Virus record (IMG/VR): IMGVR_UViG_3300005323_000061
Span: 1 to 46,059 of that record
Strand: one strand, 5' to 3'
Source of the DNA: a virus
Taxonomy: Duplodnaviria > Caudoviricetes
Length of the DNA: 46,059 bases
Position 1 is the first letter of the stretch, and every line of letters starts with the position of its first letter. Shown here piece by piece: positions 10,912 to 28,019 of the stretch. Below the pieces are notes generated by a model that saw nothing but the letters and a program-made list of their open reading frames with translations, ran no database searches and had not been told where the DNA came from. The translations under genes and the position numbers were made by a program.

Positions 10912-11079
10912 ATGAAACTCCAACAAATCCTTAAAGCGTTACAATCTAACTGTAACCGCCGCAAGAGTTGTGTTGGTTGTGATATTGGTACAAGGCCGAT
11001 TCCCGGAACCTTGGGTAAAGGGAGATGTTTACTCTTAGAACTCCGCAATGAAATCAAACAACAAAAGTTGGTGGAATGA
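10912..11079 (+). CDS. Small Cys-containing hypothetical protein (55 aa)
   Basis: MKLQQ...CVGC...C; its stop overlaps the next ATG. Confidence 0.55.
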   Translation: MKLQQILKALQSNCNRRKSCVGCDIGTRPIPGTLGKGRCLLLELRNEIKQQKLVE

Positions 11080-11246
11080 TGGAGTTGTTGATAGAATGGT
11101 TTCTTGATGAGGATTTTGACCTCAATGGATGGGGTGACCTTTCGTTTTGGGGGTGTTGCGGGGGATATAATGGGTTTTTAAGTTTGGGATCTTCATTTAA
11201 ATGGAATTTCCGAAGAGGTTGTGATTATGGTTCCGCCATTACCTAA
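11079..11246 (+). CDS. W...GxDY micro-protein
   Basis: MELLIEW...RRGCDYGSAIT (hand-translated, 55 aa). Confidence 0.7.
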   Translation: MELLIEWFLDEDFDLNGWGDLSFWGCCGGYNGFLSLGSSFKWNFRRGCDYGSAIT

Positions 11247-11406
11247 AATACTTAGTTGGGAGTTTCGTGGATGCACACTACACGCTCAGTTAAATACAAG
11301 TCGGTCTTGTGCATTTACTACAGGAAGTGGTGGACTAAATAGGTTCTATAATTTCAGATACCACTTCAAGATAGGTGATGATTATGCAATGGCAACTCAA
11401 AACTAA
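11227..11406 (+). CDS. W...GxDY micro-protein
   Basis: ...ILSWEF...FKIGDDYAMATQN. Confidence 0.7.
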   Translation: MVPPLPKILSWEFRGCTLHAQLNTSRSCAFTTGSGGLNRFYNFRYHFKIGDDYAMATQN

Positions 11407-11548
11407 TACGCTTACTGGAAGAGATCCGGTAGAAAAGACCTGTTGTTGCGTGGTTCCGGGTGAGTATGGTACATACCCCTACAAATACTCAGGAGATAAT
11501 TTTATTAACAGGTTTGAGTTTGGTGAAGATTACCTCAAGCCGCAGTGA
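11384..11548 (+). CDS. W...GxDY micro-protein
   Basis: MQWQL...FEFGEDYLKPQ (hand-translated, 54 aa); GGTGA RBS. Confidence 0.72.
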   Translation: MQWQLKTNTLTGRDPVEKTCCCVVPGEYGTYPYKYSGDNFINRFEFGEDYLKPQ

Positions 11549-11577
11549 TTCCTTAACTGGATGAGCGAGGAGTTTAC

Positions 11578-11733
11578 ATGACTGCTTGGAGTGTTGATAT
11601 ATTGTGGGACTCGCAATTGCCCGTGATATTGGAATGTAAATCGAGGGCCAATTGCCCACTTGGTATAAACAATAAGTGGTGCTTGTTTGCTTCTAAGATT
11701 ACACCACTAATAAGAGGTGAGGATTATGGATGA
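11578..11733 (+). CDS. W...GxDY micro-protein
   Basis: MTAWSV...LIRGEDYG (hand-translated, 51 aa); GGAG RBS. Confidence 0.72.
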   Translation: MTAWSVDILWDSQLPVILECKSRANCPLGINNKWCLFASKITPLIRGEDYG

Positions 11734-12043
11734 CCAAGATGTAATTACACAGATGCTTGTTTCAGATGATGCGAAGTTCGACCGACAGATGGTTGTACTT
11801 AACCTTGAAGCAGGTAGACCAACGGCTTCCACAATAAAGAAGTTGTTGGTTGTTGAACCGACTGAACGAAAGAAAGTTACACCCGAACAGCAGGCTACAC
11901 TTGATGCCGCATGGAAGTTCCGCGTTGATTGTAAGCGCGCTTTAAACGACTGCGAAGATAATAGACAGATCACCGCATTAAAGAAAGCGTACTTGAAGTC
12001 AGTTGATGACTACAAAGCGTTATACGCTAAGATTTGTGGGTGA
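11726..12043 (+). CDS. Hypothetical protein
   Basis: GAGGTGA RBS before ATG 11726. Confidence 0.7.
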   Translation: MDDQDVITQMLVSDDAKFDRQMVVLNLEAGRPTASTIKKLLVVEPTERKKVTPEQQATLDAAWKFRVDCKRALNDCEDNRQITALKKAYLKSVDDYKALYAKICG

Positions 12044-12047
12044 GACT

Positions 12048-12455
12048 ATGATGTGTTCCGCAAGAATTACCCTTATTTGCGATGTCCCAAAAAACGTGCA
12101 AACTGAGATTACAAATGACTTTAAAAAAGCATTTGAGGGGATTGATATTGGGTGGTATGGGATCACCAACCAGATAATTATGGAAACGCTCTTTACAGGA
12201 AAGCAACTCAAACAATCAAAAGACAGGGGGGTTGATATCAATGTGCCGTATAACTACGATATGTTTGAACGCTTAAAACGCGCATCTAAAAAACATTTTG
12301 GTTCTATAAAAATAAAAGGCCCGGACCTGTCGTGGTGTTCGTCTAATTTTTATGATAGTTTTGATCGGTTATCACACCTAACTGATATTTTGTTTGCTGC
12401 AAGAAAGTTAGATAGATACGGGCATGTTGTAAAAATACAATATAAGTCTGGGTGA
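12048..12455 (+). CDS. Hypothetical protein
   Basis: GGTGA RBS before ATG 12048. Confidence 0.65.
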   Translation: MMCSARITLICDVPKNVQTEITNDFKKAFEGIDIGWYGITNQIIMETLFTGKQLKQSKDRGVDINVPYNYDMFERLKRASKKHFGSIKIKGPDLSWCSSNFYDSFDRLSHLTDILFAARKLDRYGHVVKIQYKSG

Positions 12456-12459
12456 AATC

Positions 12460-12978
12460 ATGCACCCAAATGTAAAGAGGTTACTAAAAGAACTCAAAAA
12501 ATCCCCCCAAACCGTAGAAGAACTTTCAAAAACACTCGGCGGATCTCCAAATGATATACTTATATGGGCAAAACTCGCAGAATCGGAGGGTTTTTTGGAT
12601 ATTAAAACCTACAAATCAAACCGGGTTGTTTATACCGAAGAGGGTAAACAATACTTAAAATCTGGACTTCCAGAAACGCAACTCCTTAATGCTATTATTG
12701 ATGAGACCACAATATCATCACTTAAATCTCACCCGATGTTCTCTAAAGGGTTTGGTGTTTTAAGGAAGATGGGGGCAATCAAAATTGAAGGCGAACGTGT
12801 AATAAAGATTCCGGGGGTTAATACGGAGGAAAAAGAGGCCATTTTCAGATCGTTTTTAATTCAACCACAACAAAAAGTTGTATTCAGTGGAGGAGTTGGA
12901 ACCCTTAAAGATAGGGAACTGTATCTTTCTGTACCGATAGATTTAAGTTATGATTATGAAACGCCGTATCATTGGTGA
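12460..12978 (+). CDS. Stand-alone N-terminal winged-helix region of archaeal phenylalanyl-tRNA synthetase alpha subunit (no catalytic domain)
   Basis: YTEEGKQYLKSGLPETQLL and GFGVLRKMGAIKI match the archaeal PheS N-terminus (LTEEG..Y...GLPE..L; G....K.GWI.I). Confidence 0.75.
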   Translation: MHPNVKRLLKELKKSPQTVEELSKTLGGSPNDILIWAKLAESEGFLDIKTYKSNRVVYTEEGKQYLKSGLPETQLLNAIIDETTISSLKSHPMFSKGFGVLRKMGAIKIEGERVIKIPGVNTEEKEAIFRSFLIQPQQKVVFSGGVGTLKDRELYLSVPIDLSYDYETPYHW

Positions 12979-12982
12979 AATC

Positions 12983-13273
12983 ATGTTAAAACAAATTTGC
13001 GCCTCAATAAGAGAGGTTAAATATACCAAAGAGGGTCTTGAACAGCGACAAAAAGACCTTGAAGCGGAACTTGAAGCCTCGCTTGAAATATCTTACCCCA
13101 CATACCGCATTCTTAAACAGATGCGGGTTAAACTTGAGAAGTACCGCAAAGATAGATGTGTTTTTAGTCACTATGATAATACACCTAGGGATTCAACTCG
13201 CCTTGAGATGATACGGCACTTTGACACTCTCATTGCGGAACACCGCCAAGAGATAATGAAAAACGAAACTTAA
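12983..13273 (+). CDS. Hypothetical coiled-coil protein
   Basis: GGTGA RBS before ATG 12983. Confidence 0.65.
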   Translation: MLKQICASIREVKYTKEGLEQRQKDLEAELEASLEISYPTYRILKQMRVKLEKYRKDRCVFSHYDNTPRDSTRLEMIRHFDTLIAEHRQEIMKNET

Positions 13274-13289
13274 ATTCACCACATTTTTA

Positions 13290-13360
13290 GCGCGTATATC
13301 CTAGTGGTAGGGAGCCGTTCTGATACAGCGATTGCACCAGTTCGATTCTGGTTACGCGCA
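13290..13360 (+). tRNA. tRNA-Ile (anticodon GAT)
   Basis: Acceptor GCGCGTA/TACGCGC, D arm TCCT-AGTGGTA-GGGA, anticodon loop CT-GAT-AC, T arm ACCAG-TTCGATT-CTGGT, discriminator A; no encoded CCA. Confidence 0.85.
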
Positions 13361-13370
13361 TGGAGTTATT

Positions 13371-13577
13371 ATGAAGTGGCTTATTGAAAGTGGAGAATAC
13401 CTTTCGTTTGAAAGAGTTCTTGGGGGAATACGACCCGCAGTTATATTAGGTAATAAAATACGCAGAGATAGTTGGTGTAAAGGCGGGAGTTGGAAAGGGA
13501 CAAACCTGATTATAGAGCCAAACAACAGCGGCGAATCAGACTGAAAATGGATAGTAATAGGTGATGATTATGAGTGA
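13371..13577 (+). pseudogene. W...GxDY micro-protein interrupted by an in-frame TGA at 13542-13544
   Basis: MKWLIES...GESD*KWIVIGDDYE*. Confidence 0.55.
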
Positions 13578-13797
13578 AAAATATAACGTCCCATGGTTAT
13601 TAGAGCCTTCAAACATTGAGAGAACCGAGTTTCACTTAATTGCGGATTATGCATATTATATTGACCGCTCATATGGTAAATTCCAAGTTAGGGAATGGGG
13701 GGCACTGCATTATACAATGCCGCGAGTGAATGGGCTTCCAGTAAGAGGAAATGATTATATACTTGATGACCGCGCCGCAGTATATAAACCTTTCTGA
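13570..13797 (+). CDS. W...GxDY micro-protein
   Basis: MSEKYNVPWLL...PVRGNDYIL... Confidence 0.7.
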   Translation: MSEKYNVPWLLEPSNIERTEFHLIADYAYYIDRSYGKFQVREWGALHYTMPRVNGLPVRGNDYILDDRAAVYKPF

Positions 13798-14144
13798 AAA
13801 ACGCATAGTACGATTAATATATTAATAAAAAGGTGACCACATGTTACATGTATTACACACAGAGAACCGACGTAATGTATACAATGTGTATGTACTACAC
13901 GCGATTTTAAGAAAGTCTCTGAAAAATATCATATCTAAATCTTTAATGAAAAAGTCATATCTAAAAAGCCATTCATTGTTTGTACTTATAAGTATATATA
14001 TTGAACGAAAGAGGGTAACAACACTATATAAAGGTATCTTTATGCAACTCAAATTTTTATTTTCCATTTTCTCAAAAGTATCTACACAATCTACACCACT
14101 TACACACGAACTCGTTGTTAATCACTCTATTTGAGGTTTTACCT

Positions 14145-14414
14145 ATGCCGTACTCTTCAATTCCGTATTTTCACACATGCACGCAACGTGTAAGTACTAC
14201 ACCTACCCGTTGTTCTTGGCAGATCAACGAGGGCAATCTAAATAGGATGGAACAAAATTACCCTTTTTTAATGCACTTAACTAAAGGGTATGTGTGGAGA
14301 ACCAAAATGGGAAGGGCCGCTCACACAGATACTTACAAAGATTTTTACTGTGAATATTGTAAAAATGGGTATCATATGGTTCCAGCAATAGGTGACGATT
14401 ATGAACGTGCTTAA
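14145..14414 (+). CDS. W...GxDY micro-protein
   Basis: ...CSWQI...PAIGDDYERA; GAGGT RBS. Confidence 0.65.
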   Translation: MPYSSIPYFHTCTQRVSTTPTRCSWQINEGNLNRMEQNYPFLMHLTKGYVWRTKMGRAAHTDTYKDFYCEYCKNGYHMVPAIGDDYERA

Positions 14415-14631
14415 GTGGCATTTAACTGACGGATATCGTTGTGGCCTGTATTTTGAGGTTAATAGCGTATCGGAAGGACTTATAATCCGCGATCTTGGTA
14501 AGGTTGGGACATTATGGAGATATAGACATTTCCCCGAATCGGACAGGAGAGAGTATAAATTCTTCTACTGTGAGCCGAGTGTAAAAGACGGATCAACCCC
14601 AGTACCGATGATAGGTGAAGATTATGGTTAA
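14401..14631 (+). CDS. W...GxDY micro-protein
   Basis: MNVLKWHL...PMIGEDYG. Confidence 0.75.
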   Translation: MNVLKWHLTDGYRCGLYFEVNSVSEGLIIRDLGKVGTLWRYRHFPESDRREYKFFYCEPSVKDGSTPVPMIGEDYG

Positions 14632-14809
14632 ATGGAGTGTTGGGGGGTATGGTACACCCTCTCTAAATGTTGACAAATCAGAAGTTATACTCATAGTACA
14701 CAGAGCAGGTCATTTAACAAGAGAAGGTGGAGAAGTAACTGAAAATATGCGTCCAGTTAAGTTCTACAATGAGTTAATCGTTAAAGGTGATGACTATGCA
14801 AATCCTTAA
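14624..14809 (+). CDS. W...GxDY micro-protein
   Basis: MVKWSV...IVKGDDYANP. Confidence 0.75.
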   Translation: MVKWSVGGYGTPSLNVDKSEVILIVHRAGHLTREGGEVTENMRPVKFYNELIVKGDDYANP

Positions 14810-14999
14810 ATGGATAGTAAGGCAGTCTAATAGACCTCTTGGAGTTGAAAGGCCGGGCCGCGCGGATTGTTTTTATGACCCGATGCACAGATCAACATTT
14901 AGCGAGCATATGCAATTAACTTCTCCGTGGGACGGTATATTTAACCTTGAAGCAAATAATCGTGGACAAATTGCGATTGGTGATGACTATGTACTGTGA
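14796..14999 (+). CDS. W...GxDY micro-protein
   Basis: MQILKWIV...IAIGDDYVL. Confidence 0.75.
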   Translation: MQILKWIVRQSNRPLGVERPGRADCFYDPMHRSTFSEHMQLTSPWDGIFNLEANNRGQIAIGDDYVL

Positions 15000-15129
15000 T
15001 AAAAACAAACGCAAGTGTACGTATCACTTCCTAACCTGTGAGTGTTTTGGGAAGAACGGGTGTTCCAGAGTTACTGATAATACAACTCATGACGATCCGA
15101 AGGTGTTCCACAAATGCGTCCAGTTATGA
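14989..15129 (+). CDS. Small Cys-rich protein
   Basis: MYCDKNKRKC...; GGTGA RBS. Confidence 0.5.
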   Translation: MYCDKNKRKCTYHFLTCECFGKNGCSRVTDNTTHDDPKVFHKCVQL

Positions 15130-15338
15130 AGTGGGTATATAAGGATTTCGCATTAAGAGTCAATCCAGAGGGGAATGCTGATGGAGGGAGAATTGTTGAT
15201 CTGACTTTTACTCATACAATGAACACAATTTATCTTTGGAATTACTTTCCACATCAGTTCCGCGCAAGATTGGTGCCCTTCTTTGTTAATCCTGATATAA
15301 TTCACATATATACAGGTGACGATTATGCAAGATTATAG
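15126..15338 (+). CDS. W...GxDY micro-protein
   Basis: MKWVY...IYTGDDYARL. Confidence 0.75.
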   Translation: MKWVYKDFALRVNPEGNADGGRIVDLTFTHTMNTIYLWNYFPHQFRARLVPFFVNPDIIHIYTGDDYARL

Positions 15339-15528
15339 TTGGGGGGTTTTATATGCTGATCCATATTATGATCTCATAACTAACGGGTATGTAGGTAAAG
15401 ATTGCCTAAAGATGTGGATTAATTCGAATAGTTATATCCTTGTAATTAATAGGTGGTTAGCAGGATATACTAAAAAATACGCCTTTGAAGTTGGTGAGGA
15501 TTATGCAATGGGCAATACGACACAATAG
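15325..15528 (+). CDS. W...GxDY micro-protein
   Basis: MQDYSWGV...FEVGEDYAMG... Confidence 0.72.
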   Translation: MQDYSWGVLYADPYYDLITNGYVGKDCLKMWINSNSYILVINRWLAGYTKKYAFEVGEDYAMGNTTQ

Positions 15529-15700
15529 ATTAATGACTATGAGGGCGTGGCCTTGGGGTAGTGATTTTAGTACTTTACTTTATATATGGGACAGATCATT
15601 ACGCAGAGTCTTTACTACAACTCCTAAAGTGGTTACTATATCTTCGGGTAAGTTAAAAAGAGGTTCAAACTACCAAAGAGCATCAGAGAATGTGAATTGA
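15503..15700 (+). CDS. W...GxNY micro-protein
   Basis: MQWAI...LKRGSNYQ... Confidence 0.7.
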   Translation: MQWAIRHNRLMTMRAWPWGSDFSTLLYIWDRSLRRVFTTTPKVVTISSGKLKRGSNYQRASENVN

Positions 15701-15748
15701 CGGTTCGCATCCGCCACTCTGAATCCGGCCAAACCGGAAGTGAAAAAC

Positions 15749-15943
15749 ATGAACATCCAATGGTATGTCTTTGAAGAGAGAGAAATGTGTCATTTGGGGT
15801 ACGATTATGGTATCCGTAAATCACACGTTTTACAACCAAGATCAAACAAAATCGGTGTTTTCTATAATTGGAAATGGAGTCAACACCCGTTTGTTTTGAG
15901 TGGTATGAACGACATTGCCATTGGAAAGGATTATTTAAGGTGA
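15749..15943 (+). CDS. W...GxDY micro-protein
   Basis: MNIQWYV...IAIGKDYLR. Confidence 0.72.
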   Translation: MNIQWYVFEEREMCHLGYDYGIRKSHVLQPRSNKIGVFYNWKWSQHPFVLSGMNDIAIGKDYLR

Positions 15944-15947
15944 AAAA

Positions 15948-16217
15948 ATGGTTGAAAAAAGATGTAAACACGAAATCCACGAGTCGATGAAAGGCAAACC
16001 GTTGGAGAAGTGGCACATTTACATCCATGAAGGTGAAGATATTCCAAACTCAAAGCAGAACGGAGACCTCATAATGGCGGTTTTCGATCAGTACGGAAAG
16101 AGTTGGGATGTACTTGCTGTTGGTGTAGATGGCAAACTCCACTTGTTCGTCGGTCTCCCGGACTGGATTGAAGGAGTCAAAGTAGACTCCAAAGGCCGCA
16201 TTGTTGTCGAAAGTTAA
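15948..16217 (+). CDS. Hypothetical beta-rich protein
   Basis: AGGTGA RBS; protein-like composition. Confidence 0.75.
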   Translation: MVEKRCKHEIHESMKGKPLEKWHIYIHEGEDIPNSKQNGDLIMAVFDQYGKSWDVLAVGVDGKLHLFVGLPDWIEGVKVDSKGRIVVES

Positions 16218-16227
16218 GGAAATTACT

Positions 16228-16428
16228 ATGTTTTGGTTTATTCGTGGTAACGATCTCTGCGTGCACTCACCAATCCCCGCGTTTGGGTATTGGATGGTGC
16301 TCCGTGGTTTACAATTCAATTACATCGAAAGGTGGGGTTGGGTTGATGATGCCCACAAAGACGCGGTTGTTGAACCACTACAAAGAGAACACCAAAACAA
16401 AGTAATATTCGGAAAAGATTATGGGTGA
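16228..16428 (+). CDS. W...GxDY micro-protein
   Basis: MFWFI...VIFGKDYG. Confidence 0.72.
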   Translation: MFWFIRGNDLCVHSPIPAFGYWMVLRGLQFNYIERWGWVDDAHKDAVVEPLQREHQNKVIFGKDYG

Positions 16429-16431
16429 GTT

Positions 16432-16593
16432 ATGGAGTGGAAGATTGCGAAAGCGCATTTAAGTTGTGATTTGGGATTGATCATATTCCCTACAAGTTCT
16501 AAACTTATTAAGACGAGAGGCGCTCGCATTCCACCACTTATAACTTCATCTCATGGCGAAATCAAAACTGGAGATGACTATGCATATCTTTGA
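16432..16593 (+). CDS. W...GxDY micro-protein
   Basis: MEWKI...EIKTGDDYAYL (hand-translated, 53 aa). Confidence 0.7.
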   Translation: MEWKIAKAHLSCDLGLIIFPTSSKLIKTRGARIPPLITSSHGEIKTGDDYAYL

Positions 16594-16786
16594 ATGGTTA
16601 CTTGAGTGCGGTACTAAGGACACGCTTCATTGCTACGATGTTGATGCAAGGTTTAGGTGGTCCGTGTTATACATACAGATGTCAAAATGCCTTAAACGCG
16701 ATCATGGCTTTGATGGTGATGCATCATTCAGTACGCGCAATGACAGGATAACCATTGGTAAAGATTATAGTCGGGAGAGACTATGA
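16580..16786 (+). CDS. W...GxDY micro-protein
   Basis: MHIFEWLL...ITIGKDYSRERL. Confidence 0.72.
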   Translation: MHIFEWLLECGTKDTLHCYDVDARFRWSVLYIQMSKCLKRDHGFDGDASFSTRNDRITIGKDYSRERL

Positions 16787-16998: not shown

Positions 16999-16999
16999 C

Positions 17000-17314: not shown

Positions 17315-18661
17315 ATGCCAATCAAAAACGGGCGGGTTTACGTTTCCGTTAATTGTGGTTGCGGAAAAGAAGTGGTTGTTTCTTCCGGTGATTTCGGTAC
17401 GTACTGTACTAACTGCGGGAGACCGATCTTCGCTGCAAGTTACAATGAACAGTTAAACGTTGAAATCCGCAATGTAGTAAAAGCAGAAAGACTTAAAATG
17501 CGGAAAGAACGTAAGGGTCATCCTCCGGTAGAGGATTACTCGGTGGGTTCTTCCGCACTAATAAAAACCTGCGCTAACTGTGGGGGAAATCTTTCTGCCG
17601 GGGGATTATACATTGTCGATGGTGAACCTATCTGTAAGGTTTGCTATGAGACTAAAATTCCCCGATGTAAGGGTTGTAACGAACGCCACTTCCCGCAGTA
17701 CTTAAAGAAAGGGCTATGTGAAGGGTGCATTGTCTCGTTTGCAACCTGCAAGAACTGTGGTACAGTGTATGACAAGCGAAAAACTCACGAGTTTGAACTT
17801 GAAGGAAAGTCTTTCTGTGAGAACTGTGTTCCGCGCTATCTGGAAGCAAAAGGCGTGAGGTTCAACGGATACTCCCACAAACCAAAACCCGTATTCCTCG
17901 GTGAAAAGGAGGATTTGGTATTCTATGGTGTCGAACTCGAAACCGATAACTCACAAAGACGTTCAGAGTTGATGGCGAGAGCGCACTGTGACGAGATTTA
18001 TTTCAAATCTGATGGGAGTCTTGGGCCCGGCGGTGTTGAAATCGTATCCCATCCCGCAACGCTTAAGTACCACATGAACGAGTTTCCGTGGAAAAACATT
18101 CTCTCATCCGCTAAAATATGCGGGTATAAGAGCCACACCGGAGTAAGTGGAGACCGGCACTCAAACCATCCTACTTGTGGGTTACACATCCACGTTAACA
18201 AGGAAGCATTCGGAAGAACTACAAGTGAACGCGACACCAGAGAAGCGAAACTACTCGTACTCGTAGACAAGTTCTGGAACAAACTCGTCATATTCTCAAG
18301 GAGAGATAAACGCTCTTTAGAGAACTGGGCGAGACGGTATGCTGACTTTGACGTAACCAACGACCAACTATCTGATATTATCAGTAAAGCCAAGTCTGAG
18401 AACTCAAGAGACCGTCGTCTTGCTGTAAATTTCGGTGCAAATAACTCTGCAACAGTAGAGTTCCGCATGTTCCGGGGAACGCTGAACTACGAAACGTTGA
18501 TTGCAACTATCCAGTTGATTGACCTCCTTGTGGAAATGTCGAAGTTACCTACCAAGAAGGTTCAGGCAATGACTTGGGACGAGTTCTGTGAAGAAGGGTC
18601 CAAGTACGAGGAATTCACAGGATACTTAACAAGACTCCGTGGAATGAAGCGGGATATCTGA
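17315..18661 (+). CDS. Amidoligase (COOH-NH2 ligase, glutamine synthetase-like fold) with N-terminal CxxC repeats
   Basis: YGVELE, KSDGSL...EIVSHP, CGLHIHV and TVEFRMFRGTLN motifs; many CxxC pairs N-terminally. Confidence 0.88.
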   Translation: MPIKNGRVYVSVNCGCGKEVVVSSGDFGTYCTNCGRPIFAASYNEQLNVEIRNVVKAERLKMRKERKGHPPVEDYSVGSSALIKTCANCGGNLSAGGLYIVDGEPICKVCYETKIPRCKGCNERHFPQYLKKGLCEGCIVSFATCKNCGTVYDKRKTHEFELEGKSFCENCVPRYLEAKGVRFNGYSHKPKPVFLGEKEDLVFYGVELETDNSQRRSELMARAHCDEIYFKSDGSLGPGGVEIVSHPATLKYHMNEFPWKNILSSAKICGYKSHTGVSGDRHSNHPTCGLHIHVNKEAFGRTTSERDTREAKLLVLVDKFWNKLVIFSRRDKRSLENWARRYADFDVTNDQLSDIISKAKSENSRDRRLAVNFGANNSATVEFRMFRGTLNYETLIATIQLIDLLVEMSKLPTKKVQAMTWDEFCEEGSKYEEFTGYLTRLRGMKRDI

Positions 18662-18720
18662 GGTGTACTTTGTGCATCGTTTACACACAGTTTATATGAT
18701 ATTGTAACCCACATATTCAC

Positions 18721-19176
18721 ATGAAAGAAATTCCACTCACTCGCGGAAAAGTGGCGATTGTTGACGATGAGGATTATGAGAAATTGCGCACTATTAAATG
18801 GCATTCCCAAACAACAAAGGTAAAGGGAAGAATCTTACTATATGCCGCTCACTCGGTTTATAGGAGAGAGGGTTCGCACAAAGTTTTGATAATGCACAGG
18901 CTCATAACAAACTGCCCAAAAGGGTTAGAGGTTGATCATATCGATGGAGACGGACTTAACAATCAAAAGTCAAATCTCCGTGTCGTAACTAGATTCCTCA
19001 ACCAACAAAACAGACATGGGAACAAAACAAGCAAGTACACCGGAGTATATTATGACAAACAGATCAACAAATGGAGGGCACAAGTACAGATCAATGGAAA
19101 AAGATATGATTTTGGTCTTTTTGACACAGAAGAAGAGGCACACACAAAACGGGAGGGATTTGTATCTGTATTATAG
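18721..19176 (+). CDS. HNH endonuclease with C-terminal AP2 domain
   Basis: AIVDDEDYE, MHRLI...VDHIDGDGLNNQKSNLR, SKYTGV...KWRAQ...G.F.TEEEA; its own TATA box (TTTATATG) at 18691. Confidence 0.93.
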   Translation: MKEIPLTRGKVAIVDDEDYEKLRTIKWHSQTTKVKGRILLYAAHSVYRREGSHKVLIMHRLITNCPKGLEVDHIDGDGLNNQKSNLRVVTRFLNQQNRHGNKTSKYTGVYYDKQINKWRAQVQINGKRYDFGLFDTEEEAHTKREGFVSVL

Positions 19177-20027
19177 TGCATAAGGAACCGGATGTAAAAC
19201 CCCCAACCGAAGCCATATTGACCCAATGCCTAAAAACTCATAAAGATGGGTTTGGTGCGATGTGGCGTGAGGGTAAATACATCTGTATCGTAAAAGGACT
19301 CTTTGACATCAAAGGGATAATGAAAATTATCCAGAATGTACCAAAAGAGTCAGAAGCGGCGTTTCACTTCCGAATGGCAACACACGGGACGGTAAGTGCG
19401 GGCAACTGCCACCCCTTCCCACTTTCTATTAGGAACGACGCATTACAGAAAACTGCGGGAGTGTTTGATACAGGATTAATGCACAACGGCATTATATCGG
19501 GTTTCGGGTATAGGGATTCATCCACACACTCAGACACGATGAATTTTATTAAGTACCTTTGTAGGTCAACCGGTGGGATATACACAATGGATAAACTGAC
19601 CAAAAACATCAAAGATCATTACGGAAAGTTTATCATATTCACACCAAACTGGACCTACACATGGGGTACTTTTGTAGATGACGGGGGGCTTAAGTATTCA
19701 AACACAACATACAAAGTTTACCCTAAATGGAATGGAAATTTCCTAGGTGACGGTAACGACGACTACGATTACAACAAGAGATTCAAGAAAAATAAACGCA
19801 AACACTACCTACCGCTTGTAAAAGAAGTCAACCCGGAAGCATTGCAATGGAGATCAGACTCAAGAACTGCGGTATATCTCGGAGTTGTGGGAGATGTGTT
19901 CTACTACAGAGGGGTAACAATCTTCTGTGAAAGCGGCTATGATAAAGCAGAACTTGACTTCATAAAGGAAGAAATTGACTTATCTATCCTTGAGGGGGAG
20001 TTTGAGGGAAATTATAACCCTATATAA
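19164..20027 (+). CDS. Class II (Ntn) glutamine amidotransferase; start uncertain
   Basis: CIIVHK at 19167; DGFG, HFRMATHG....NCHPF, LMHNGII and SDT motifs. The catalytic Cys is preceded by ATC rather than ATG. Confidence 0.85.
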   Translation: MCIIVHKEPDVKPPTEAILTQCLKTHKDGFGAMWREGKYICIVKGLFDIKGIMKIIQNVPKESEAAFHFRMATHGTVSAGNCHPFPLSIRNDALQKTAGVFDTGLMHNGIISGFGYRDSSTHSDTMNFIKYLCRSTGGIYTMDKLTKNIKDHYGKFIIFTPNWTYTWGTFVDDGGLKYSNTTYKVYPKWNGNFLGDGNDDYDYNKRFKKNKRKHYLPLVKEVNPEALQWRSDSRTAVYLGVVGDVFYYRGVTIFCESGYDKAELDFIKEEIDLSILEGEFEGNYNPI

Positions 20028-20209
20028 ATTTCTACGAGTCGTAAACCGTATTTGTCGGTGACAGGTACGGGCGAACTCCTACGAGATTGGAGGGAGTGGC
20101 AAGAATCCAACGAAATTGTGGACTGCAAGCCACGTTAAAACGTTGAAACCCGTGTTGGAGATAACTACCACTCTTAAAACACAAACGAAAGAAATGGAGT
20201 GAAGAAAAA

Positions 20210-20891: not shown

Positions 20892-21413
20892 ATGAACGCT
20901 ACAGAACTCTCAGGAACGGTTACCTCAATAAAAGGGGATATTCTTGGAGTGGGTATAACACAGGTTTCACTGAGAGATGTGAAAAACAAACCCCCAGTAA
21001 AAATCGGGGATACCGTTGAAGTACATTTCACGCTTGGAAGGTACTATGCAGCGTGGTACAGAGTAATAAAACCAAAGGAGAAAAAGATGAAATCCGCGAA
21101 AACCGTTGAAGAATACATAACTTCTATCGCAGAGATGCAGCCGTTCTTAGGTCAGGAGTTCACAGACCGGCTGAGTGATGATGACAAGATTGTATTGCAA
21201 AACGTCATGAGAGAGTCAGTAGGGAACTCAATAAGACTGTATAACATTACAGCAACGTATGACGACACCCGCAAGGATCTTGTCGAAATCGCAGAGAAAG
21301 TGCTGGAACTCGCATTCACACTGACAGTTGTCATTGACACGAACACAACCCAAATCCTGAAAAAGAACTTGCCGCCGGAAGAGACGGAAAAAGAGAAAGA
21401 AGCAAAGAAATAA
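20892..21413 (+). CDS. Hypothetical protein (OB-like N-terminus, helical C-terminus)
   Basis: GGAGG RBS; long open frame. Confidence 0.65.
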   Translation: MNATELSGTVTSIKGDILGVGITQVSLRDVKNKPPVKIGDTVEVHFTLGRYYAAWYRVIKPKEKKMKSAKTVEEYITSIAEMQPFLGQEFTDRLSDDDKIVLQNVMRESVGNSIRLYNITATYDDTRKDLVEIAEKVLELAFTLTVVIDTNTTQILKKNLPPEETEKEKEAKK

Positions 21414-21471
21414 CCAACATCGGGGTTCAATCCCCCTGTTGGTATACTAAATAATTTTAAATAGGTGTAAT

Positions 21472-21639
21472 ATGAAATTCAGGGTTGACAGTGAATATTC
21501 TGACCGTTTTGAGGGTGTACTATGGGTTATGCCAAGTGATATTTGTGTTGTTTACTTCAATAAAAGATTTGAACTATGCGAAAATGATCGTACTTGTATA
21601 TACCCCATCGGAGGCGACTATGTACTTCATAATAAATAG
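21472..21639 (+). CDS. GxDY micro-protein
   Basis: MKFRV...YPIGGDYVLHNK (hand-translated, 55 aa); AGGTG RBS. Confidence 0.68.
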   Translation: MKFRVDSEYSDRFEGVLWVMPSDICVVYFNKRFELCENDRTCIYPIGGDYVLHNK

Positions 21640-21817
21640 TGAGAGGAATTACACATTTATATTGTGGTTTGTTGATTGCACTACGAACAAAACACCTCGC
21701 GCTCATAATTGCCGCCCGTGGTCCCACATCATTTTCCAATATGGTTCTCATATACCCTCGATAACCCACTTGGATAGGCCCCCAATGGCGGTTGGGAGAG
21801 ATTATGCACGTATATGA
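21620..21817 (+). CDS. GxDY micro-protein
   Basis: MYFII...MAVGRDYARI. Confidence 0.68.
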   Translation: MYFIINSERNYTFILWFVDCTTNKTPRAHNCRPWSHIIFQYGSHIPSITHLDRPPMAVGRDYARI

Positions 21818-21983
21818 ACATATAATAGATGTGCGTGGGAGGAGTTGCGCGCTTATTGTAAAATACTCACAGAAAGATTACTCTTACGTGCCCATTGAAA
21901 TAATTACGTGTCTTTTATATAGGAACTACTCTATGTTTGAACTGTGCGTACCTCGTATTGAAATTGGAGCGGATTATGTATAA
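21804..21983 (+). CDS. GxDY micro-protein
   Basis: MHVYEHII...IEIGADYV. Confidence 0.65.
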   Translation: MHVYEHIIDVRGRSCALIVKYSQKDYSYVPIEIITCLLYRNYSMFELCVPRIEIGADYV

Positions 21984-22167
21984 CCACAGTTGGGAGATAT
22001 CTCTATATACTAGTGATAACTGGTGGGACCTCCGCCTGTATGATGAAGTTACTAACACCCTTTTTGTGTGGATAGACAAAGGGTTACTTAAAACACGATA
22101 CTCGCTCGGTGCAACAAATCCCGAACCATATCCTAAAAAGAGAGGCTCAGACTATGTTCGTAATTAA
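21976..22167 (+). CDS. W...GxDY micro-protein
   Basis: MYNHSWEI...KKRGSDYVRN. Confidence 0.7.
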   Translation: MYNHSWEISLYTSDNWWDLRLYDEVTNTLFVWIDKGLLKTRYSLGATNPEPYPKKRGSDYVRN

Positions 22168-22378
22168 GTGGGGTATTGTGAGTGATGAGTACGAATATTG
22201 GTTACAAACAGATTATGTAAATAGTGATTATGGCGAACATAGGTATAATGCAATAATTTTCAACAAACAACGTAAATGTATGGTATACTGTTATAATTTA
22301 CAAGGTTGCGGGATATTATGCACCAGTGGCACCCACAGAACAATATTTGGCAGTGATTATATATTGACGAACAACTAA
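22154..22378 (+). CDS. W...GxDY micro-protein
   Basis: MFVIKWGI...TIFGSDYILTNN. Confidence 0.72.
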   Translation: MFVIKWGIVSDEYEYWLQTDYVNSDYGEHRYNAIIFNKQRKCMVYCYNLQGCGILCTSGTHRTIFGSDYILTNN

Positions 22379-22395
22379 CCGCACTCGGAGAGATT

Positions 22396-22605
22396 ATGAA
22401 GATATACGCTTGGTACGTAGTTAATGAACCCCCTGGGTGGGGGTTGCGCGCTATGTGTGCCAAAGATTATGGCGATCAAATAATGCTTAAAATACAAAAA
22501 TCAAATAACAAATTGGTTTTAATCCCTCAATATCATGACCCAAAATCTTTCCTAGCAACGCCAACATGTAAACTTATGAGGGGGGTTAATTATGAGAGAA
22601 TTTGA
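22396..22605 (+). CDS. W...GxNY micro-protein
   Basis: MKIYAWYV...LMRGVNYERI. Confidence 0.7.
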   Translation: MKIYAWYVVNEPPGWGLRAMCAKDYGDQIMLKIQKSNNKLVLIPQYHDPKSFLATPTCKLMRGVNYERI

Positions 22606-22861
22606 TTTTAGAATAGCAGTACCTTACGATGTGGAATACCCTATGGTGCTTTGGGAACGAGAGAAAACCGATGGGGGAAGATACCTGGAGTACTCGGTGT
22701 GTTACATCATTATTAAGTGGAATGAGGAATTCAGACTCTCTCGTAACGAAAACTTTGAAAAGGGTGATGATTACGGAGAGAAGGAAGTTACTATAGTCGC
22801 ACCCAATAGATTCTTTGAGGAACACTTCCAAGTGTATCCAACATGGACGGGGATTAAATGA
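22592..22861 (+). CDS. GxDY micro-protein with C-terminal extension
   Basis: MREFDFRI...FEKGDDYGEK... Confidence 0.65.
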   Translation: MREFDFRIAVPYDVEYPMVLWEREKTDGGRYLEYSVCYIIIKWNEEFRLSRNENFEKGDDYGEKEVTIVAPNRFFEEHFQVYPTWTGIK

Positions 22862-23106
22862 CAGATAAAACAGAACAAACTGAAATTGGAATGTATGACC
22901 GGTCAAAAGTACAGAGCGTTACGATTGGAGTAACTATCCCGTTAGCAACGCCATACTCTAACATCAAGACTGAAATAACCTGTGATGACGCGGAAACATG
23001 CCGCCGAGCACTTATTGAAATGCTTGCTGTTGTACTGCCTATACAGAGCGCAGTAGACCGTGATTTAGTGCAACGCTATATGAAAAATATACTGGTGAGG
23101 TCATGA
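22858..23106 (+). CDS. Hypothetical protein
   Basis: ATGA-coupled ORF. Confidence 0.65.
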   Translation: MTDKTEQTEIGMYDRSKVQSVTIGVTIPLATPYSNIKTEITCDDAETCRRALIEMLAVVLPIQSAVDRDLVQRYMKNILVRS

Positions 23107-23224
23107 CAGAACAACTCATAAAAGATGTTGCCCGGTTGTGGGTTGACCGCGGCGGCGATTCCGACGGGATTCTATGGAGCCACCAACAATTGTATAAGGA
23201 AGTAAAACGGTTGGAGAAAGAAAA

Positions 23225-23401
23225 ATGAGAGCCCCGAAACGTATTCCGCGCATATGTACTAAACTAAAACAAGCGTGGATGAAATCTCCCGACCAACGGT
23301 TAGGACAATTCATATCCAATCTGTTAGGTCCCGGAGTACATGACGTTTTCCACCCGGAAGATACTGACTGGGAAGAACTGCTTGATGAGATGATAAAATG
23401 A
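23225..23401 (+). CDS. Small YihD/DUF1040-like protein (58 aa)
   Basis: MRAPKRI...W.KSPDQRLGQ..SN...D.F..ED motif (hand-translated). Confidence 0.6.
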   Translation: MRAPKRIPRICTKLKQAWMKSPDQRLGQFISNLLGPGVHDVFHPEDTDWEELLDEMIK

Positions 23402-23589
23402 GTCAAACTGGTTTTGTTAGGTATTGGTTTGTAGCAAACTCAACTGGTATAAAAGACTCAAAATGTTGTATGAATTGTATAAAAAGAACCACGCGCGTTG
23501 ATGGATTGGATATTGGTATGTTTTATTGCAGTCAACACGACGTCCAAGTCAATCCAGACCACGTATGTCCAAAACACAAACCAGAATAA
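23398..23589 (+). CDS. Small Cys-rich protein
   Basis: CCMNC...C..H...VC..H. Confidence 0.55.
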   Translation: MSQTGFVRYWFVANSTGIKDSKCCMNCIKRTTRVDGLDIGMFYCSQHDVQVNPDHVCPKHKPE

Positions 23590-23638
23590 CTCAAATTAAC
23601 AACTTACCAAAACCCCAAATCATAATATTGGGGTTATT

Positions 23639-25588: not shown

Positions 25589-25731
25589 TGTTCTTAAGTG
25601 ATGGGGTATAATATTAGGTGGGAGAGGAATTCCGGGTACGCCCGGTCAATCCCAAACCTTTATATCCCTCTTTTTAATTTTCATAGAATTTATGTGCGTG
25701 TATGACCTACATAGGTTATACAGGAGGAAAA

Positions 25732-25956
25732 ATGGCAGATTTCTATCAGAAACAGAAAAGGATTATCTCCCAACCAGAAGTTGGGGATTTCAAGGGATCG
25801 AAAACGTTGAGCATCCCGTTCGGGAAAGAGAACGAAGCGTTCAGTTTTGGTGTGGTAAAGGCTAAGGCAATTATTAAGTACTACGCAGAAATTGTTCAGT
25901 TCGTAGCGGAAAGCGACAAGGAGTATGCGGCGAGGCAGGCGAGTAAACATGACTGA
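25732..25956 (+). CDS. Small PC4-like nucleic-acid-binding protein (tentative)
   Basis: FKG..TLSI....FSFG..KAK.I.....I..F pattern; GGAGG RBS and TATA box upstream. Confidence 0.5.
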   Translation: MADFYQKQKRIISQPEVGDFKGSKTLSIPFGKENEAFSFGVVKAKAIIKYYAEIVQFVAESDKEYAARQASKHD

Positions 25957-26119
25957 GAAAAATAGTAAACGCGGAAGGAAACCTAATATTAATGAAACTA
26001 AGTTAGTGTATCTTCATACATCTAAGAAGGTTACAGTTATCATTAACGGTACAGATGAAGTGAACATTCCTAAGAACAGTAACTTAATGGTTATTCGTTC
26101 TTAATATTTTTGGTGCTTA

Positions 26120-26278
26120 ATGGCACGAAAGACTGTATCATATCAACCACGCACTCATCAACGACTTGCGGCATTGACTGACGGTTTCGACGATTCTATG
26201 GATAAAATCGCCAACCGCCTTTTAGATTTTTGGCACAAGTACAAAGATAGGGTTGATGAACTTGAGAACCAATCCTAA
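26120..26278 (+). CDS. Small RHH-like DNA-binding protein (52 aa)
   Basis: KTVS....THQRLAAL....DSMDKIANRLLD (hand-translated). Confidence 0.55.
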   Translation: MARKTVSYQPRTHQRLAALTDGFDDSMDKIANRLLDFWHKYKDRVDELENQS

Positions 26279-26516
26279 GTACTCAAATGTTTGTTGGTCT
26301 CGTATAGGTATGTATCGTACTGAACAGTGTTACAACTGTAAGTTTCTGGTTGAGTGCGACAAGTACTATAACGAAAAGACCGGCGAGTTTGAGTACCCGC
26401 ATTTCTCATCTAACTGGGGAAGGGTAGACTTAAAGATTAAAGAAGGAGGGGTATATGAACGCGAGGGCGTATGGATCGAAACTTTACCTAACAGGAACGG
26501 AGAAGATGCTGTTTGA
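26256..26516 (+). CDS. Cys-containing hypothetical protein
   Basis: C...CxxC....C pattern; overlaps both neighbours. Confidence 0.5.
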   Translation: MNLRTNPKYSNVCWSRIGMYRTEQCYNCKFLVECDKYYNEKTGEFEYPHFSSNWGRVDLKIKEGGVYEREGVWIETLPNRNGEDAV

Positions 26517-26763
26517 TAAAGTGGAAGAGAAGATTAACTTGAAGAAAGCAGCCGCATTAAGTAAAGGTTCAAATGTGGTTTATACAAAATCTTGGTTACT
26601 TAATCAGGAGATTGTAAGTGAACTGTCCGAGAAGGAACCTACTAATGAAATACTAAAATGGAACCCGGTGTATCGCCAGCAGATTATAAGTAAGAGTTGC
26701 CGCATTCTTGGGTTCGAGAAGCGGGGGAAACATACTAAACCATTATTGGAGTTGAAGATATGA
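26455..26763 (+). CDS. Hypothetical protein
   Basis: GGAGG RBS before ATG. Confidence 0.55.
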   Translation: MNARAYGSKLYLTGTEKMLFDKVEEKINLKKAAALSKGSNVVYTKSWLLNQEIVSELSEKEPTNEILKWNPVYRQQIISKSCRILGFEKRGKHTKPLLELKI

Positions 26764-26926
26764 ATTATTTGAATTGCGGAAATATAAATTGTTTGGATTG
26801 TGAGTATAATGAACGGTGCAGAACAATTAATAAGATTCTGCGCGTACTGTTTGGAGATTGCCCACAGGGTAGGAAGAAAGCCGTAAGGGGTAAAGAGAAA
26901 GGTCAGGTTGCGTTGCCTGTTGGGTA

Positions 26927-27358
26927 ATGGATTGTAAGCGCTGCGGGGCTTGCTGTCGTAGTTTAGGTACTAAAGTTATGGGGATGTCTCCAGAAGTCAT
27001 CTCTTATCTTATTACTCGTGGATGTACTATAGATGACGCATATTTACTTATCCCGCACAGGTGCCAGCATCTTAAAGTAGATGTTAAGAACTCTGTATTT
27101 AAAGTTAACGATGACGGAACCCGCACAATGTTACAAGAGAAATATATGTGCGATATCCATGACACCCCGGAGTACCCGGTGATATGTAAAAGGTTCCACG
27201 GCCACGGGAGATATTATATACCTTTGGGTTGTGTTTATGCGACACCAGACGGAGAGAGAACAGAACTTGAACTAACAGAACGAGCAAAATCCAAATCTTT
27301 AATAAAAACAATATCCTCAACCAAAGTTGGGGGTAATGCTCGTGCAAAAGGAGGTTGA
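26927..27358 (+). CDS. YkgJ-family CxxCxxCC cysteine-cluster protein
   Basis: CKRCGACC ... RCQHL ... CDIH...P.IC..F. Confidence 0.85.
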   Translation: MDCKRCGACCRSLGTKVMGMSPEVISYLITRGCTIDDAYLLIPHRCQHLKVDVKNSVFKVNDDGTRTMLQEKYMCDIHDTPEYPVICKRFHGHGRYYIPLGCVYATPDGERTELELTERAKSKSLIKTISSTKVGGNARAKGG

Positions 27359-27483
27359 ATACGGGGGTTTTGGAATAGAAAACCACGCGTGTATGTTGGT
27401 AGGAGAGACATATTACGAACAGCAATGCAGTCTTTATGCCAATCACATGTTCTTAAATTACTTACTTGTAAGGGGGGGTAACA

Positions 27484-27666
27484 ATGCAAACGGATGTGTT
27501 GGGGGTATTTAGGTGGTGCATAGAAGGGGGGGCCGGCCCAGACTACAATCATTTATATTTTAACAGTATAAGGTTACTTATCACAAATAAGAATAGAGTT
27601 CACTTATGGGATTGGAGGCATTGCCGGTTAGGGACGTGTATTGTGCGTGGTGAGGATTATGGCTAA
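27484..27666 (+). CDS. W...GxDY micro-protein
   Basis: ...VFRWCI...IVRGEDYG. Confidence 0.68.
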   Translation: MQTDVLGVFRWCIEGGAGPDYNHLYFNSIRLLITNKNRVHLWDWRHCRLGTCIVRGEDYG

Positions 27667-27853
27667 ATTCGGTCTCGATTATATAGGGGCAGACCCAAGG
27701 ATACGACTAAGAGTTACAACACGCCACATAGATGATAATGTGTTAGGTGCATCTGACAGAATATGGCCTGCGATAAAATGGTCTGTCGGGGAAAAACACG
27801 GCCTTCGCGTATCGAAAGATAAAGTTATGTGGGGGAAGAACTATGCCAGATAA
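27659..27853 (+). CDS. GxNY micro-protein
   Basis: MAKFGL...VMWGKNYAR. Confidence 0.65.
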   Translation: MAKFGLDYIGADPRIRLRVTTRHIDDNVLGASDRIWPAIKWSVGEKHGLRVSKDKVMWGKNYAR

Positions 27854-28019
27854 ATGCAGACCCTACGGAAAAACAATGCGTTGTCGTTGGGGTGTGGGCC
27901 AAGAGCCAAATCCAATACACACGCTGTTGCTTATAGAGTGTTCAGACATATATTTTCACAGAACGGATGGAGATGATTATGAAATTGATTGTAGCAGGCA
28001 GCCGCAGCATCAAAGATAA
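27843..28019 (+). CDS. W...GxDY micro-protein
   Basis: ...CRWGV...RTDGDDYE... (hand-translated, 58 aa). Confidence 0.55.
   Translation: MPDKCRPYGKTMRCRWGVGQEPNPIHTLLLIECSDIYFHRTDGDDYEIDCSRQPQHQR

Follow-up and report, generated by a model that had tools for sequence, protein, structure and literature searches.

Among the described systems closest to the locus reported here are the anti-defense clusters of Sulfolobales viruses with their duplicated AcrID1 family; according to the available part of the source (PMC11065993), these resemble our arrays in having many small orphan genes, duplication, and very low identity within the family, and among the products of small early genes in archaeal viruses are anti-defense proteins of tested activity, with homologs as low as 7% identity. 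The genes described below differ in having no profile match, a likely Methanomicrobiales host, and a function that is predicted only; moreover, in that part of the source every AcrID1-type gene has a strong common promoter upstream, whereas those studied here appear to be chained by a dual-coded junction. Hyperplastic regions of T4-type phages, with their PeSL-mediated modular shuffling, are alike in that variable small genes occupy fixed slots and a repeated regulatory sequence is the likely crossover point (PMC2839356, in the portion available). The PeSL is, however, a promoter-terminator cassette, whereas the junction here is a degenerate 13-nt sequence inside coding sequence with passengers mostly of one family. 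No recurring cassette of promoter and stem-loop separates the genes of the arrays, where members overlap and the only repeat is the junction of 13-17 nt. Termination-reinitiation coupling, as far as the accessible text of PMC6728339 and PMC10666635 describes it, shares the intragenic Shine-Dalgarno site in the upstream 3' end and the overlapping stop and start, and in an archaeon short gene overlaps give translational coupling; known coupled overlaps are usually 1 or 4 nt, whereas those here span 8-41 nt, always in the single frame that the conserved Tyr codon dictates. The coupling tested there concerns overlaps of 1-4 nt, and its extension to 8-41 nt is an extrapolation.

Four clusters of small genes in a probable archaeal virus

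The window, that is, the whole stretch of DNA analyzed, is a complete tailed-virus genome of 46 kb, and an identical copy (L002) is present in IMG/VR. The host is probably a methane-making archaeon of the Methanomicrobiales. The capsid protein had no match among GenBank phages, the MCM protein reached only 27-35% identity among the matches listed, and a search of IMG/VR for related loci with amidoligase, MCM, MCM alignment, and L008 glutamine amidotransferase queries found nothing. The original prediction, a family of about 27 members of the form W...G-x-[D/N]-Y in four clusters, holds in coordinates and motifs, with 26 intact members (51-89 aa, median 64.5 aa) ending in G-x-[D/N]-Y and one interrupted (Table 1). 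Clusters 1, 3, and 4 contain four, seven, and three members, respectively; the 13 ascribed to cluster 2 become 12 intact members plus 13371, which is interrupted before its motif by an in-frame TGA that is also present in L002. The supposed degenerate member at 27336 was rejected as a decayed member on the grounds that it has no Trp and a conserved L014 ortholog (59% over 37 aa). As had been observed, five members, out of eight shorter than 60 aa, have the motif Tyr at residue 50. Together, the member ORFs account for 5166 bp, or 11% of the 46-kb genome. An amidoligase (PF12224) and glutamine-amidotransferase pair is encoded between clusters 2 and 3 and is also conserved next to the L008 array (61% and 53%, respectively).

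Table 1. Members of the arrays and associated features in the window
Feature	Coordinates	Strand	Remarks
Member, 55 aa, RGCDY	11079..11246	+	next ATG inside Tyr codon
Member, 59 aa, IGDDY	11227..11406	+	coupled
Member, 54 aa, FGEDY	11384..11548	+	uncoupled (TAC)
Member, 51 aa, RGEDY	11578..11733	+	starts non-member gene 11726
Non-member gene, 105 aa	11726..12043	+	flanked by two junction-like sites; L221 ortholog (42%)
tRNA gene, anticodon GAT	13290..13360	+	directly upstream of cluster 2; likewise upstream of matching L221 cluster
Interrupted member, 57 aa, TGA, then in-frame KWIVIGDDYE	13371..13577	+	junction still starts 13570
Member, 75 aa, RGNDY	13570..13797	+	uncoupled; TATA-like motif DNA
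AT-rich spacer between sub-runs	13798..14144		partly conserved in L221 (73%/111 nt, 81%/48 nt)
Member, 89 aa, IGDDY	14145..14414	+	closest paralog of 14401 (42% over 40 aa)
Member, 76 aa, IGEDY	14401..14631	+	coupled
Member, 61 aa, KGDDY	14624..14809	+	coupled
Member, 67 aa, IGDDY	14796..14999	+	starts non-member 14989
Non-member Cys-rich gene, 46 aa, within array	14989..15129	+	L221 ortholog (56%)
Member, 70 aa, TGDDY	15126..15338	+	coupled
Member, 67 aa, VGEDY	15325..15528	+	coupled; three-strand model of low confidence
Member, 65 aa, RGSNY	15503..15700	+	uncoupled (TAC)
Hairpin spacer 5' of 15749	15698..15748	+	similar spacer 5' of L221:11175
Member, 64 aa, IGKDY	15749..15943	+	uncoupled
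Non-member gene, 89 aa, within array	15948..16217	+	L221 ortholog (65%)
Member, 66 aa, FGKDY	16228..16428	+	motif ATG opens 13 codons only; next gene has own RBS
Member, 53 aa, TGDDY	16432..16593	+	coupled
Member, 68 aa, IGKDY	16580..16786	+	uncoupled; gene 16783 starts at a further junction copy 16 nt downstream
Member, 55 aa, IGGDY	21472..21639	+	positional ortholog L008:3598 (33% identity)
Member, 65 aa, VGRDY	21620..21817	+	coupled
Member, 59 aa, IGADY	21804..21983	+	coupled; without Trp
Member, 63 aa, RGSDY	21976..22167	+	coupled
Member, 74 aa, FGSDY	22154..22378	+	uncoupled; TATA-like motif DNA
Member, 69 aa, RGVNY	22396..22605	+	coupled
Member, 89 aa, KGDDY plus 28-residue tail	22592..22861	+	TAC; same L008 site has TAT plus ATG
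Non-member gene, 58 aa, GGNN over junction to 27484	27336..27512	+	conserved L014 ortholog
Member, 60 aa, RGEDY	27484..27666	+	coupled
Member, 64 aa, WGKNY	27659..27853	+	coupled
Member, 58 aa, DGDDY, least typical	27843..28019	+	starts SLOG-family gene 27979

Family signal at the protein level

On the + strand between 10900 and 28100, 25 stop-bounded frames of at least 45 codons carry the motif within 14 residues of their end, a test that leaves out 22592 with its 28-residue tail. The same test returned none on the reverse strand and one in the structural arm (24.4 kb), and among 100 dinucleotide shuffles such frames numbered zero in 86, one in 12, and two in 2. Close to the start, the family pattern is W-x-hydrophobic; toward the end, it reads hydrophobic-x-x-G-x-[D/N]-Y. 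Across the window and L008/L014 members, Trp falls within residues 2-11 in 27/35 (23% expected, p 2e-11), as predicted for the N terminus, and the residue at G-3 is Phe, Ile, Leu, Val, or Met in 27/35 (27% background, p 8.5e-10) through 12 different codons, although the p values given here and below overstate independence because the copies share ancestry. The W+2 residue is hydrophobic in 24/27, and neither this position nor G-3 nor the early Trp was used for member selection. These features recur in 15 L221 ORFs picked by location, with a hydrophobic G-3 in 12 (p 3e-5), an early Trp in 12, and a hydrophobic W+2 in 10 of 12. The middle base of the G-3 codon, 18 nt before the ATG, is T in 27/35 members versus 20/59 non-member starts (p 9e-5). 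The idea that the N-terminal Trp is a by-product of the upstream stop was rejected, because the order of the two is not constant: the Trp precedes the stop in some members and follows it in others.

Within the motif, the Gly codon ends in A (8), C (2), G (6), or T (19), and the Asp/Asn codon solely in C or T; for 15 location-defined ORFs of cluster 3, a purine at the latter site occurs in 0/15 versus 32/59 other starts (p 7e-5). G, D/N, and Y are retained in the eight motifs from which no gene starts, with differences at 22/48 free sites versus 1/48 residue-fixing sites, a comparison that is partly circular because these eight were found by the motif; the TATA-like motif DNA of 13570 and 22154 gives a DNA-level reason for keeping those two. 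Both 15749 and L221:10917 contain IAIGKDY, with four synonymous and no residue changes over seven codons. Tyr is present in 50/50 members examined from three viruses and is the most constant residue, because G or D/N is missing from 6/15 L221 members, in 5 of these at or beside the Shine-Dalgarno site. The predicted richness in aromatic and Cys residues was borne out against six larger early proteins (W 3.4 versus 0.8%, Y 6.8 versus 3.9%, C 2.8 versus 1.9%). Homology of the middles is weak, because with the motif removed only 3/26 members were outscored by no more than one of 200 shuffles in a leave-one-out profile, and with the motif masked only 14/1225 pairs exceed z 4.

Taken at the sequence level, the members very probably constitute one protein-level family, and constant ends with fast-diverging middles are supported across them. 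RBS overlap alone, raised with the original prediction as a possible source of the pattern, does not explain the motif, because unselected residues are enriched and replicated and the motif persists where it is uncoupled.

The motif as a probable translation junction

Beyond the earlier reading, the motif appears to be a translation junction as well. An ATG lies within the Tyr codon in 19/26 window members, the Shine-Dalgarno site being the bases just before, and with L008/L014 included 27/35 motifs overlap a real start and have an intragenic Shine-Dalgarno site. A match of at least four bases, scored against a generic anti-Shine-Dalgarno sequence, accompanies 26/27 coupled versus 4/8 uncoupled motifs (p 0.006). 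The start ATG keeps one fixed frame relative to the Tyr codon. We consider the motif probably to be a dual-use coupled junction, with translational coupling as the predicted outcome. RBS needs seem at times to override G or D, as in the six L221 ORFs above. The non-member genes 11726, 14989, and 27979 also start from the same junction, junction DNA not read as the motif occurs at 12038, 13560, and 16773, and a near-copy precedes 22396; the full DNA pattern is found at only 1/59 listed non-member starts, a list from which the matching start 12048 is absent. The x position of the motif is Asp or Glu in 15/27 coupled versus 2/8 uncoupled cases, which is not significant (p 0.23).

Mean junction identity drops to background beyond the motif, except for codon-phase peaks. 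Mantel tests gave no significant linkage between junctions (p 0.08 and 0.66), and no recombination event was caught. TATA-like words are scattered, and visual inspection of upstream regions, 10 from the window and 3 from relatives, revealed no common motif; a scan for sigma-70 promoters, a model unsuited to archaea, gave chance level.

Divergence among related viruses

Syntenic arrays occupy the same sites in three viruses (the window, L008/L014, and L221). In this comparison of cassettes, member numbers differ per slot, with 4/4, 2/4, 4/3, and 4/4 for window/L221, 7/8 for window/L008, and 3/1 for window/L014. Flanking genes retain 37-83% (L008/L014) and 36-78% (L221) identity to the window, and members are mostly unalignable between relatives, with one clear positional pair (33% identity); members diverge far faster than neighboring genes. 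In the L008 virus, 39 allelic proteins differ by substitutions only, and 0/32 variable columns (of 457) fall at the first W, G, D, or Y, which by a rough estimate is not significant. The available close copies have identical arrays, and member numbers differ between distant relatives only. No variant within the arrays was seen in contigs of runs X1 and X2; X1 is possibly the source, and X2 is incomplete and of shallow depth. Pattern scans, which allowed gaps of at most 30 nt and can miss other spacing or degenerate motifs, recovered only the virus's own copy L002 as an array in two cases (5 and 12 stretches), no array in GTDB (64 stretches), and the own copy plus one new virus in two further scans (35 and 70 stretches).

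Family and fold searches

The members appear to match no described family in Pfam, PHROGs, PADLOC, or PDB, as the original prediction had it. Weak matches only were obtained for 1/28 window ORFs in Pfam (E 0.032), 2/35 members in PHROGs (E 0.05-0.07), and 1/35 in PADLOC (E 0.038), with none among PDB sequences at E 5; these four sources revealed no homology to known anti-defense inhibitors, a result in which fast evolution could hide one. A profile search of 1.84 billion proteins gave five matches, namely two own members and three unrelated, motif-less Trp-rich repeat proteins; a word-index search with alignment A3 returned one own member and P0122, the relatives of which are confined to its own cluster. 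ESM Atlas gave no match at 0.9 or above, and a search of accessible literature listings found no description of a G-x-[D/N]-Y family.

Structure models of members (pLDDT 47.5 and 51.2) contain small beta sheets, the P0138 model being a four-strand antiparallel sheet with the motif in the part below pLDDT 50, which suggests with low confidence that the members are beta-rich small proteins. Fold searches on these low-confidence models gave generic hits, with best Z of 3.2 (rmsd 5.2, 57 aligned) and 3.6 (rmsd 2.8, 42 aligned), and a best E of 0.64 in a Foldseek viral search. The motif presumably resembles the Sm2 and LxxGxDY turn motifs. As to the view of a diversified library on a constant scaffold, the constant ends and fast-diverging middles stand, whereas a common fold is conjectural at the pLDDT of 47-51 of the models.

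Discussion

The reading that we prefer, and hold at roughly an even chance, is that the virus carries tandem arrays of one fast-diverging, likely host-directed early small-protein family, the motif of which usually doubles as the ribosome site and start codon of the next gene. That the members act as independent host-directed effectors is about evenly balanced too. The constant residues would form a core or latch and the middle a variable binding surface, and ribosomes that finish one member may re-initiate at the following one. The array would gain or lose members through duplication or unequal crossover, with the 13-nt junctions as exchange points. The resulting units would each retain a whole C-terminal motif together with a functional start, and point divergence would account for the remaining change; the targets might be host defense or housekeeping proteins. 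Rather doubtful is an extended version in which the 13-base junction is at once latch, start signal, and crossover point, and beta modules made in fixed ratio, combinatorial or hub-docked, present a variable host-binding surface without a diversifying enzyme.

It seems unlikely that the C-terminal motif serves as an exposed tag at which one partner docks or adds a modification, whether that partner is a hub protein of the host or an enzyme of the virus, for which the amidoligase/glutamine-amidotransferase pair is an example. The invariant Tyr (50/50), the location of the motif in low-confidence model tails, and the conservation of the amidoligase and its partner beside the L008 array are consistent with a tag, but both kinds of docking partner are candidates only, G and D are replaceable, and the equally constant W-x-hydrophobic start points to structural pairing; because 1 to 28 residues follow the Tyr, the motif is not a true C-terminal ligation tag. 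A hetero-oligomer, with members as interchangeable subunits (e.g. four-stranded blades in a ring), the motif latching the Trp strand of the next chain and coupling setting stoichiometry, we judge quite unlikely. The four-strand P0138 sheet, the many propellers among its top fold rows (generic, Z at most 3.6), and the seven and eight members of cluster 3 in two viruses would suit it, as would, in the available portions of the sources, the enrichment of short overlaps in genes for heteromeric complexes (PMC10666635) and the ability of fragments of one to six blades to form oligomeric propellers (PMC6805158). Against it, a sub-run may hold anything from 1 to 8 members, the junction also serves genes unrelated to the family, and neighboring members have almost no sequence in common, with which fixed interfaces would be hard to square.

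Improbable, and already largely refuted, is the reading of the motif as mere read-through of a copied RBS-plus-ATG junction in ORFs that are largely neutral filler: the 27/35 motifs overlapping a real start, the several sites with junction DNA lacking the peptide, and the yielding of G or D in 6/15 L221 ORFs speak for it, but the enrichment at G-3, Trp, and W+2 concerns positions beyond the RBS and recurs in L221, uncoupled motifs persist, the full DNA pattern occurs at one listed non-member start (12048 being unlisted), and the 39 allelic proteins differ by substitutions alone. A dedicated machine, whether a diversity-generating retroelement or an integron-like recombinase, that writes or swaps the middles is highly improbable, for although the units are cassette-like with constant ends and the 13371 remnant after the TGA looks as though a start motif had been joined to an end motif, that remnant is equally a normal-length member with one nonsense codon, the complete genome has no match to RVT_1 (reverse transcriptase), tyrosine integrase, or serine resolvase, searches found no template/variable repeat pair, long template repeat, or palindromic cassette site, and junction identity is at background outside the motif, bar codon-phase peaks.

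Under the preferred reading of host-directed arrays, divergence faster than that of the neighbors points to an arms race with the methanogen host. To our knowledge, the antiviral conflicts of such hosts are almost unstudied, and the three viruses offer 50 candidate host-interaction proteins for screening. The junction would be a clear example from nature of a single short sequence used both as a protein motif and as a translation start, and its dual use would explain how arrays grow and shrink with both genes intact. With this design, the virus can probably gain, lose, and exchange members within a predicted host-directed protein library.

The terminal motif is a translation junction

In the window, G-x-[D/N]-Y ends 26 small ORFs, and a 27th (13371; ORFs are named by their start positions) has the motif just beyond an in-frame TGA, so that the original prediction of about 27 members in four clusters holds as 26 intact members and one interrupted. 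The number is far above background, with 25 motif-ending frames counted against at most two in each of 100 shuffles, none on the opposite strand, and one in the structural arm. The motif Tyr is residue 50 in five of the eight members shorter than 60 aa, as had been noticed. ORF 27336, on the other hand, had been proposed as a degenerate member, a reading that we rejected; it looks more like a distinct, conserved gene.

At the DNA level the motif reads GGN NNN RAY TAY and is a translation junction, translation itself being predicted. The Tyr codon and the following base spell ATG in 19 of the 26 window members, and the G and x codons provide the next gene with its Shine-Dalgarno site. The window and the related contigs L008 and L014 together have 35 members, and 27 of their junction ATGs open frames of at least 40 codons. 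Junction overlaps span 8-41 nt in a single frame throughout, whereas most ordinary overlaps in the same arm measure 1 or 4 nt. Three non-members (11726, 14989, and 27979) also start at a motif junction, and at 12038, 13560, and 16773 junction DNA is present but the peptide is not. Eight motifs start no gene, and for five of these (11384, 15749, 16228, 16580, and 22154) a separate RBS shortly downstream takes over the start role.

The virus and features near the arrays

Direct terminal repeats mark the record as a complete virus, and profile matches identify a portal, a terminase, a DNA methylase, an MCM helicase, an amidoligase, a SLOG protein, and a PKD-domain protein, together with a weak match to an SU10-like capsid protein. 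Its DNA is present in two sequencing runs, both groundwater metagenomes. We can only infer a Methanomicrobiales host, because the nearest named cellular MCMs, from this group, are 40-42% identical and rank behind a probably viral MCM group at 52-82%. The + strand arm carries all four clusters, the MCM, and the tRNA gene, a gene content from which we infer an early region. Several unrelated genes of two other MCM-bearing contigs (L012 and L013) end in LRQAGEP over a near-invariant junction holding the RBS and start of the next gene, which reads as another C-terminal motif that derives from a junction, in this case with its DNA conserved.

Coordinates of the member clusters and of other features in the window and its relatives
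Feature	Window	Relative	Observation
Member clusters 1-4	11079-11733; 13371-16786; 21472-22861; 27484-28019
ORF with early stop	10681-10905		Good RBS; ends after 33 codons and a different frame goes on; looks frameshifted
tRNA gene	13290-13360	L221:8662-8736	Anticodon GAT; directly before first cluster 2 member in both viruses; its 3' processing might free array mRNA
AT-rich spacer	13798-14144	L221:about 9400-10070	Conserved DNA blocks; HNH-like gene inside the L221 spacer; no protein match in L221 for the 97-aa window ORF at 13841
Spacer hairpins	15698-15748; 21410-21445	L221:11103-11177	Ahead of sub-runs; spacer 15698-15748 has an L221 counterpart; loops presumably resemble a tRNA T-arm
Conserved non-member	15948-16217		Contains KWHIYIHEGEDI; resembles start and end motifs of a member fused
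Amidoligase and glutamine amidotransferase-like pair	17315-20027		HNH/AP2 gene in between; no room for an HNH counterpart at the matching L008 site
Intergenic stretch, glutamine amidotransferase to 87-aa gene	20030-20190	L008:2145-2335	Conserved blocks, possible paired stems; no significant Rfam match; candidate non-coding RNA, from two sequences only
PKD-domain protein	42795-44927		Also a polysaccharide deacetylase domain; probably a virion adhesin

Predicted structure and proposed role

AlphaFold models gave three strands for 15325 (pLDDT 47.5) and four for the member protein P0138 (pLDDT 51.2), and the family leans more towards beta structure than do 20 small genes outside it (p = 6e-4). 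It is fair to predict small beta-rich proteins. The common fold that the original prediction proposed to test for is not established at this confidence, fold searches with these models returning generic matches only. We propose that the constant residues would hold a small sheet together while the middle would bind host targets. By analogy with small genes expressed early by archaeal viruses of other kinds (PMC11065993), and from the divergence rate, the chances that the proteins are host-directed seem about even. That the motif is instead a docking tag shared by all members appears unlikely. Members acting as combinatorial subunits would find a precedent in blade fragments able to oligomerise (PMC6805158), although we consider this a rather poor prospect.

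RBS overlap and protein-level constraint

Because RBS overlap had been named beforehand as a possible refutation and the motif proved to be a junction, this explanation was tested. Judged from sequence patterns, it does not suffice, since enrichment at the residue three before the motif Gly (G-3), at an early Trp, and two residues after it (W+2) falls outside the RBS. G-3 is F/I/L/V/M in 27/35 members (p = 8.5e-10) via 12 codons, Trp lies within residues 2-11 in 27/35 (p = 2e-11), and W+2 is hydrophobic in 24/27; neither G-3 nor W+2 played a part in member selection. Cluster 3 offers a set delimited by position, 15 ORFs across the window and L008; every one has the motif, and none has a purine at the Asp/Asn wobble base, compared with 32 of 59 other starts, a list that omitted 12048, itself with junction-like DNA. 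The eight motifs starting no gene keep their residues, with differences at 22/48 free sites and 1/48 residue-fixing sites, in a comparison that is partly circular and includes two TATA-like motifs. That the motif is a mere by-product of the junction is therefore improbable.

An independent virus reproduces the pattern in a looser form. L221 (G001), an 11.8-kb fragment, shares its gene order with window 2.7-16.2 kb, down to the tRNA ahead of cluster 2. Its 15 ORFs chosen by position, one of which (10090) is without a clear start, show hydrophobic G-3 in 12, early Trp in 12, G in 12, D/N in 11, and the exact motif in nine; Tyr is found in 15/15, with its choice guided by an overlapping ATG in 12 and by register in the other three. 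Five of the six losses of G or D fall at or next to a Shine-Dalgarno site, which argues that the protein and RBS layers are both constrained, with the RBS sometimes prevailing.

Divergence and copy number

L008 and L014, possibly two pieces of one virus, encode MCM 66-70% identical to that of the window and carry eight members where the window has cluster 3 and one where it has cluster 4. Flanking and interspersed genes remain 37-83% (L008/L014) and 36-78% (L221) identical, while motif-masked members are mostly unalignable (14/1225 pairs at z > 4, mean z 0.25), in line with the hypervariable middles first described; the sole clear positional pair shares 33% identity. Members 14145 and 14401 look like a tandem duplication. 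Comparison of cassette content between relatives, as originally suggested, revealed differing numbers per slot (window/relative: 4/4, 2/4, 4/3, 4/4, 7/8, and 3/1); no recombination event was caught in metagenome contigs or in junction comparisons. Alleles in strains of the L008 virus are distinguished by dispersed substitutions, one of which affects the free x position. No long repeat was found in the window, and its complete genome gave no match to a reverse transcriptase, tyrosine integrase, or serine resolvase; a dedicated diversifier is extremely improbable as the source of the variation.

Relation to known arrays

The members match no family in Pfam, PHROGs, PADLOC, PDB sequences, or a large protein profile search, and no description was found in the literature searched, in agreement with the initial impression of an undescribed family; the array itself is of a known sort and works in the manner of hyperplastic or anti-defence gene arrays in viruses. 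By their defining tests it does not pass as a PeSL cassette, a retroelement, or an integron, PeSL shuffling being the nearest recombination analogue (PMC2839356). The arrays show a family pattern at both ends of the protein and a dual-coded junction; they occupy fixed slots, vary in copy number, and diverge fast. A ribosome ending one member may start again on its neighbour, a mechanism demonstrated in Haloferax where overlaps are short (PMC6728339; PMC10666635). Crossover between any two junctions would keep motif and start intact, so that the array could be resized without a special enzyme.
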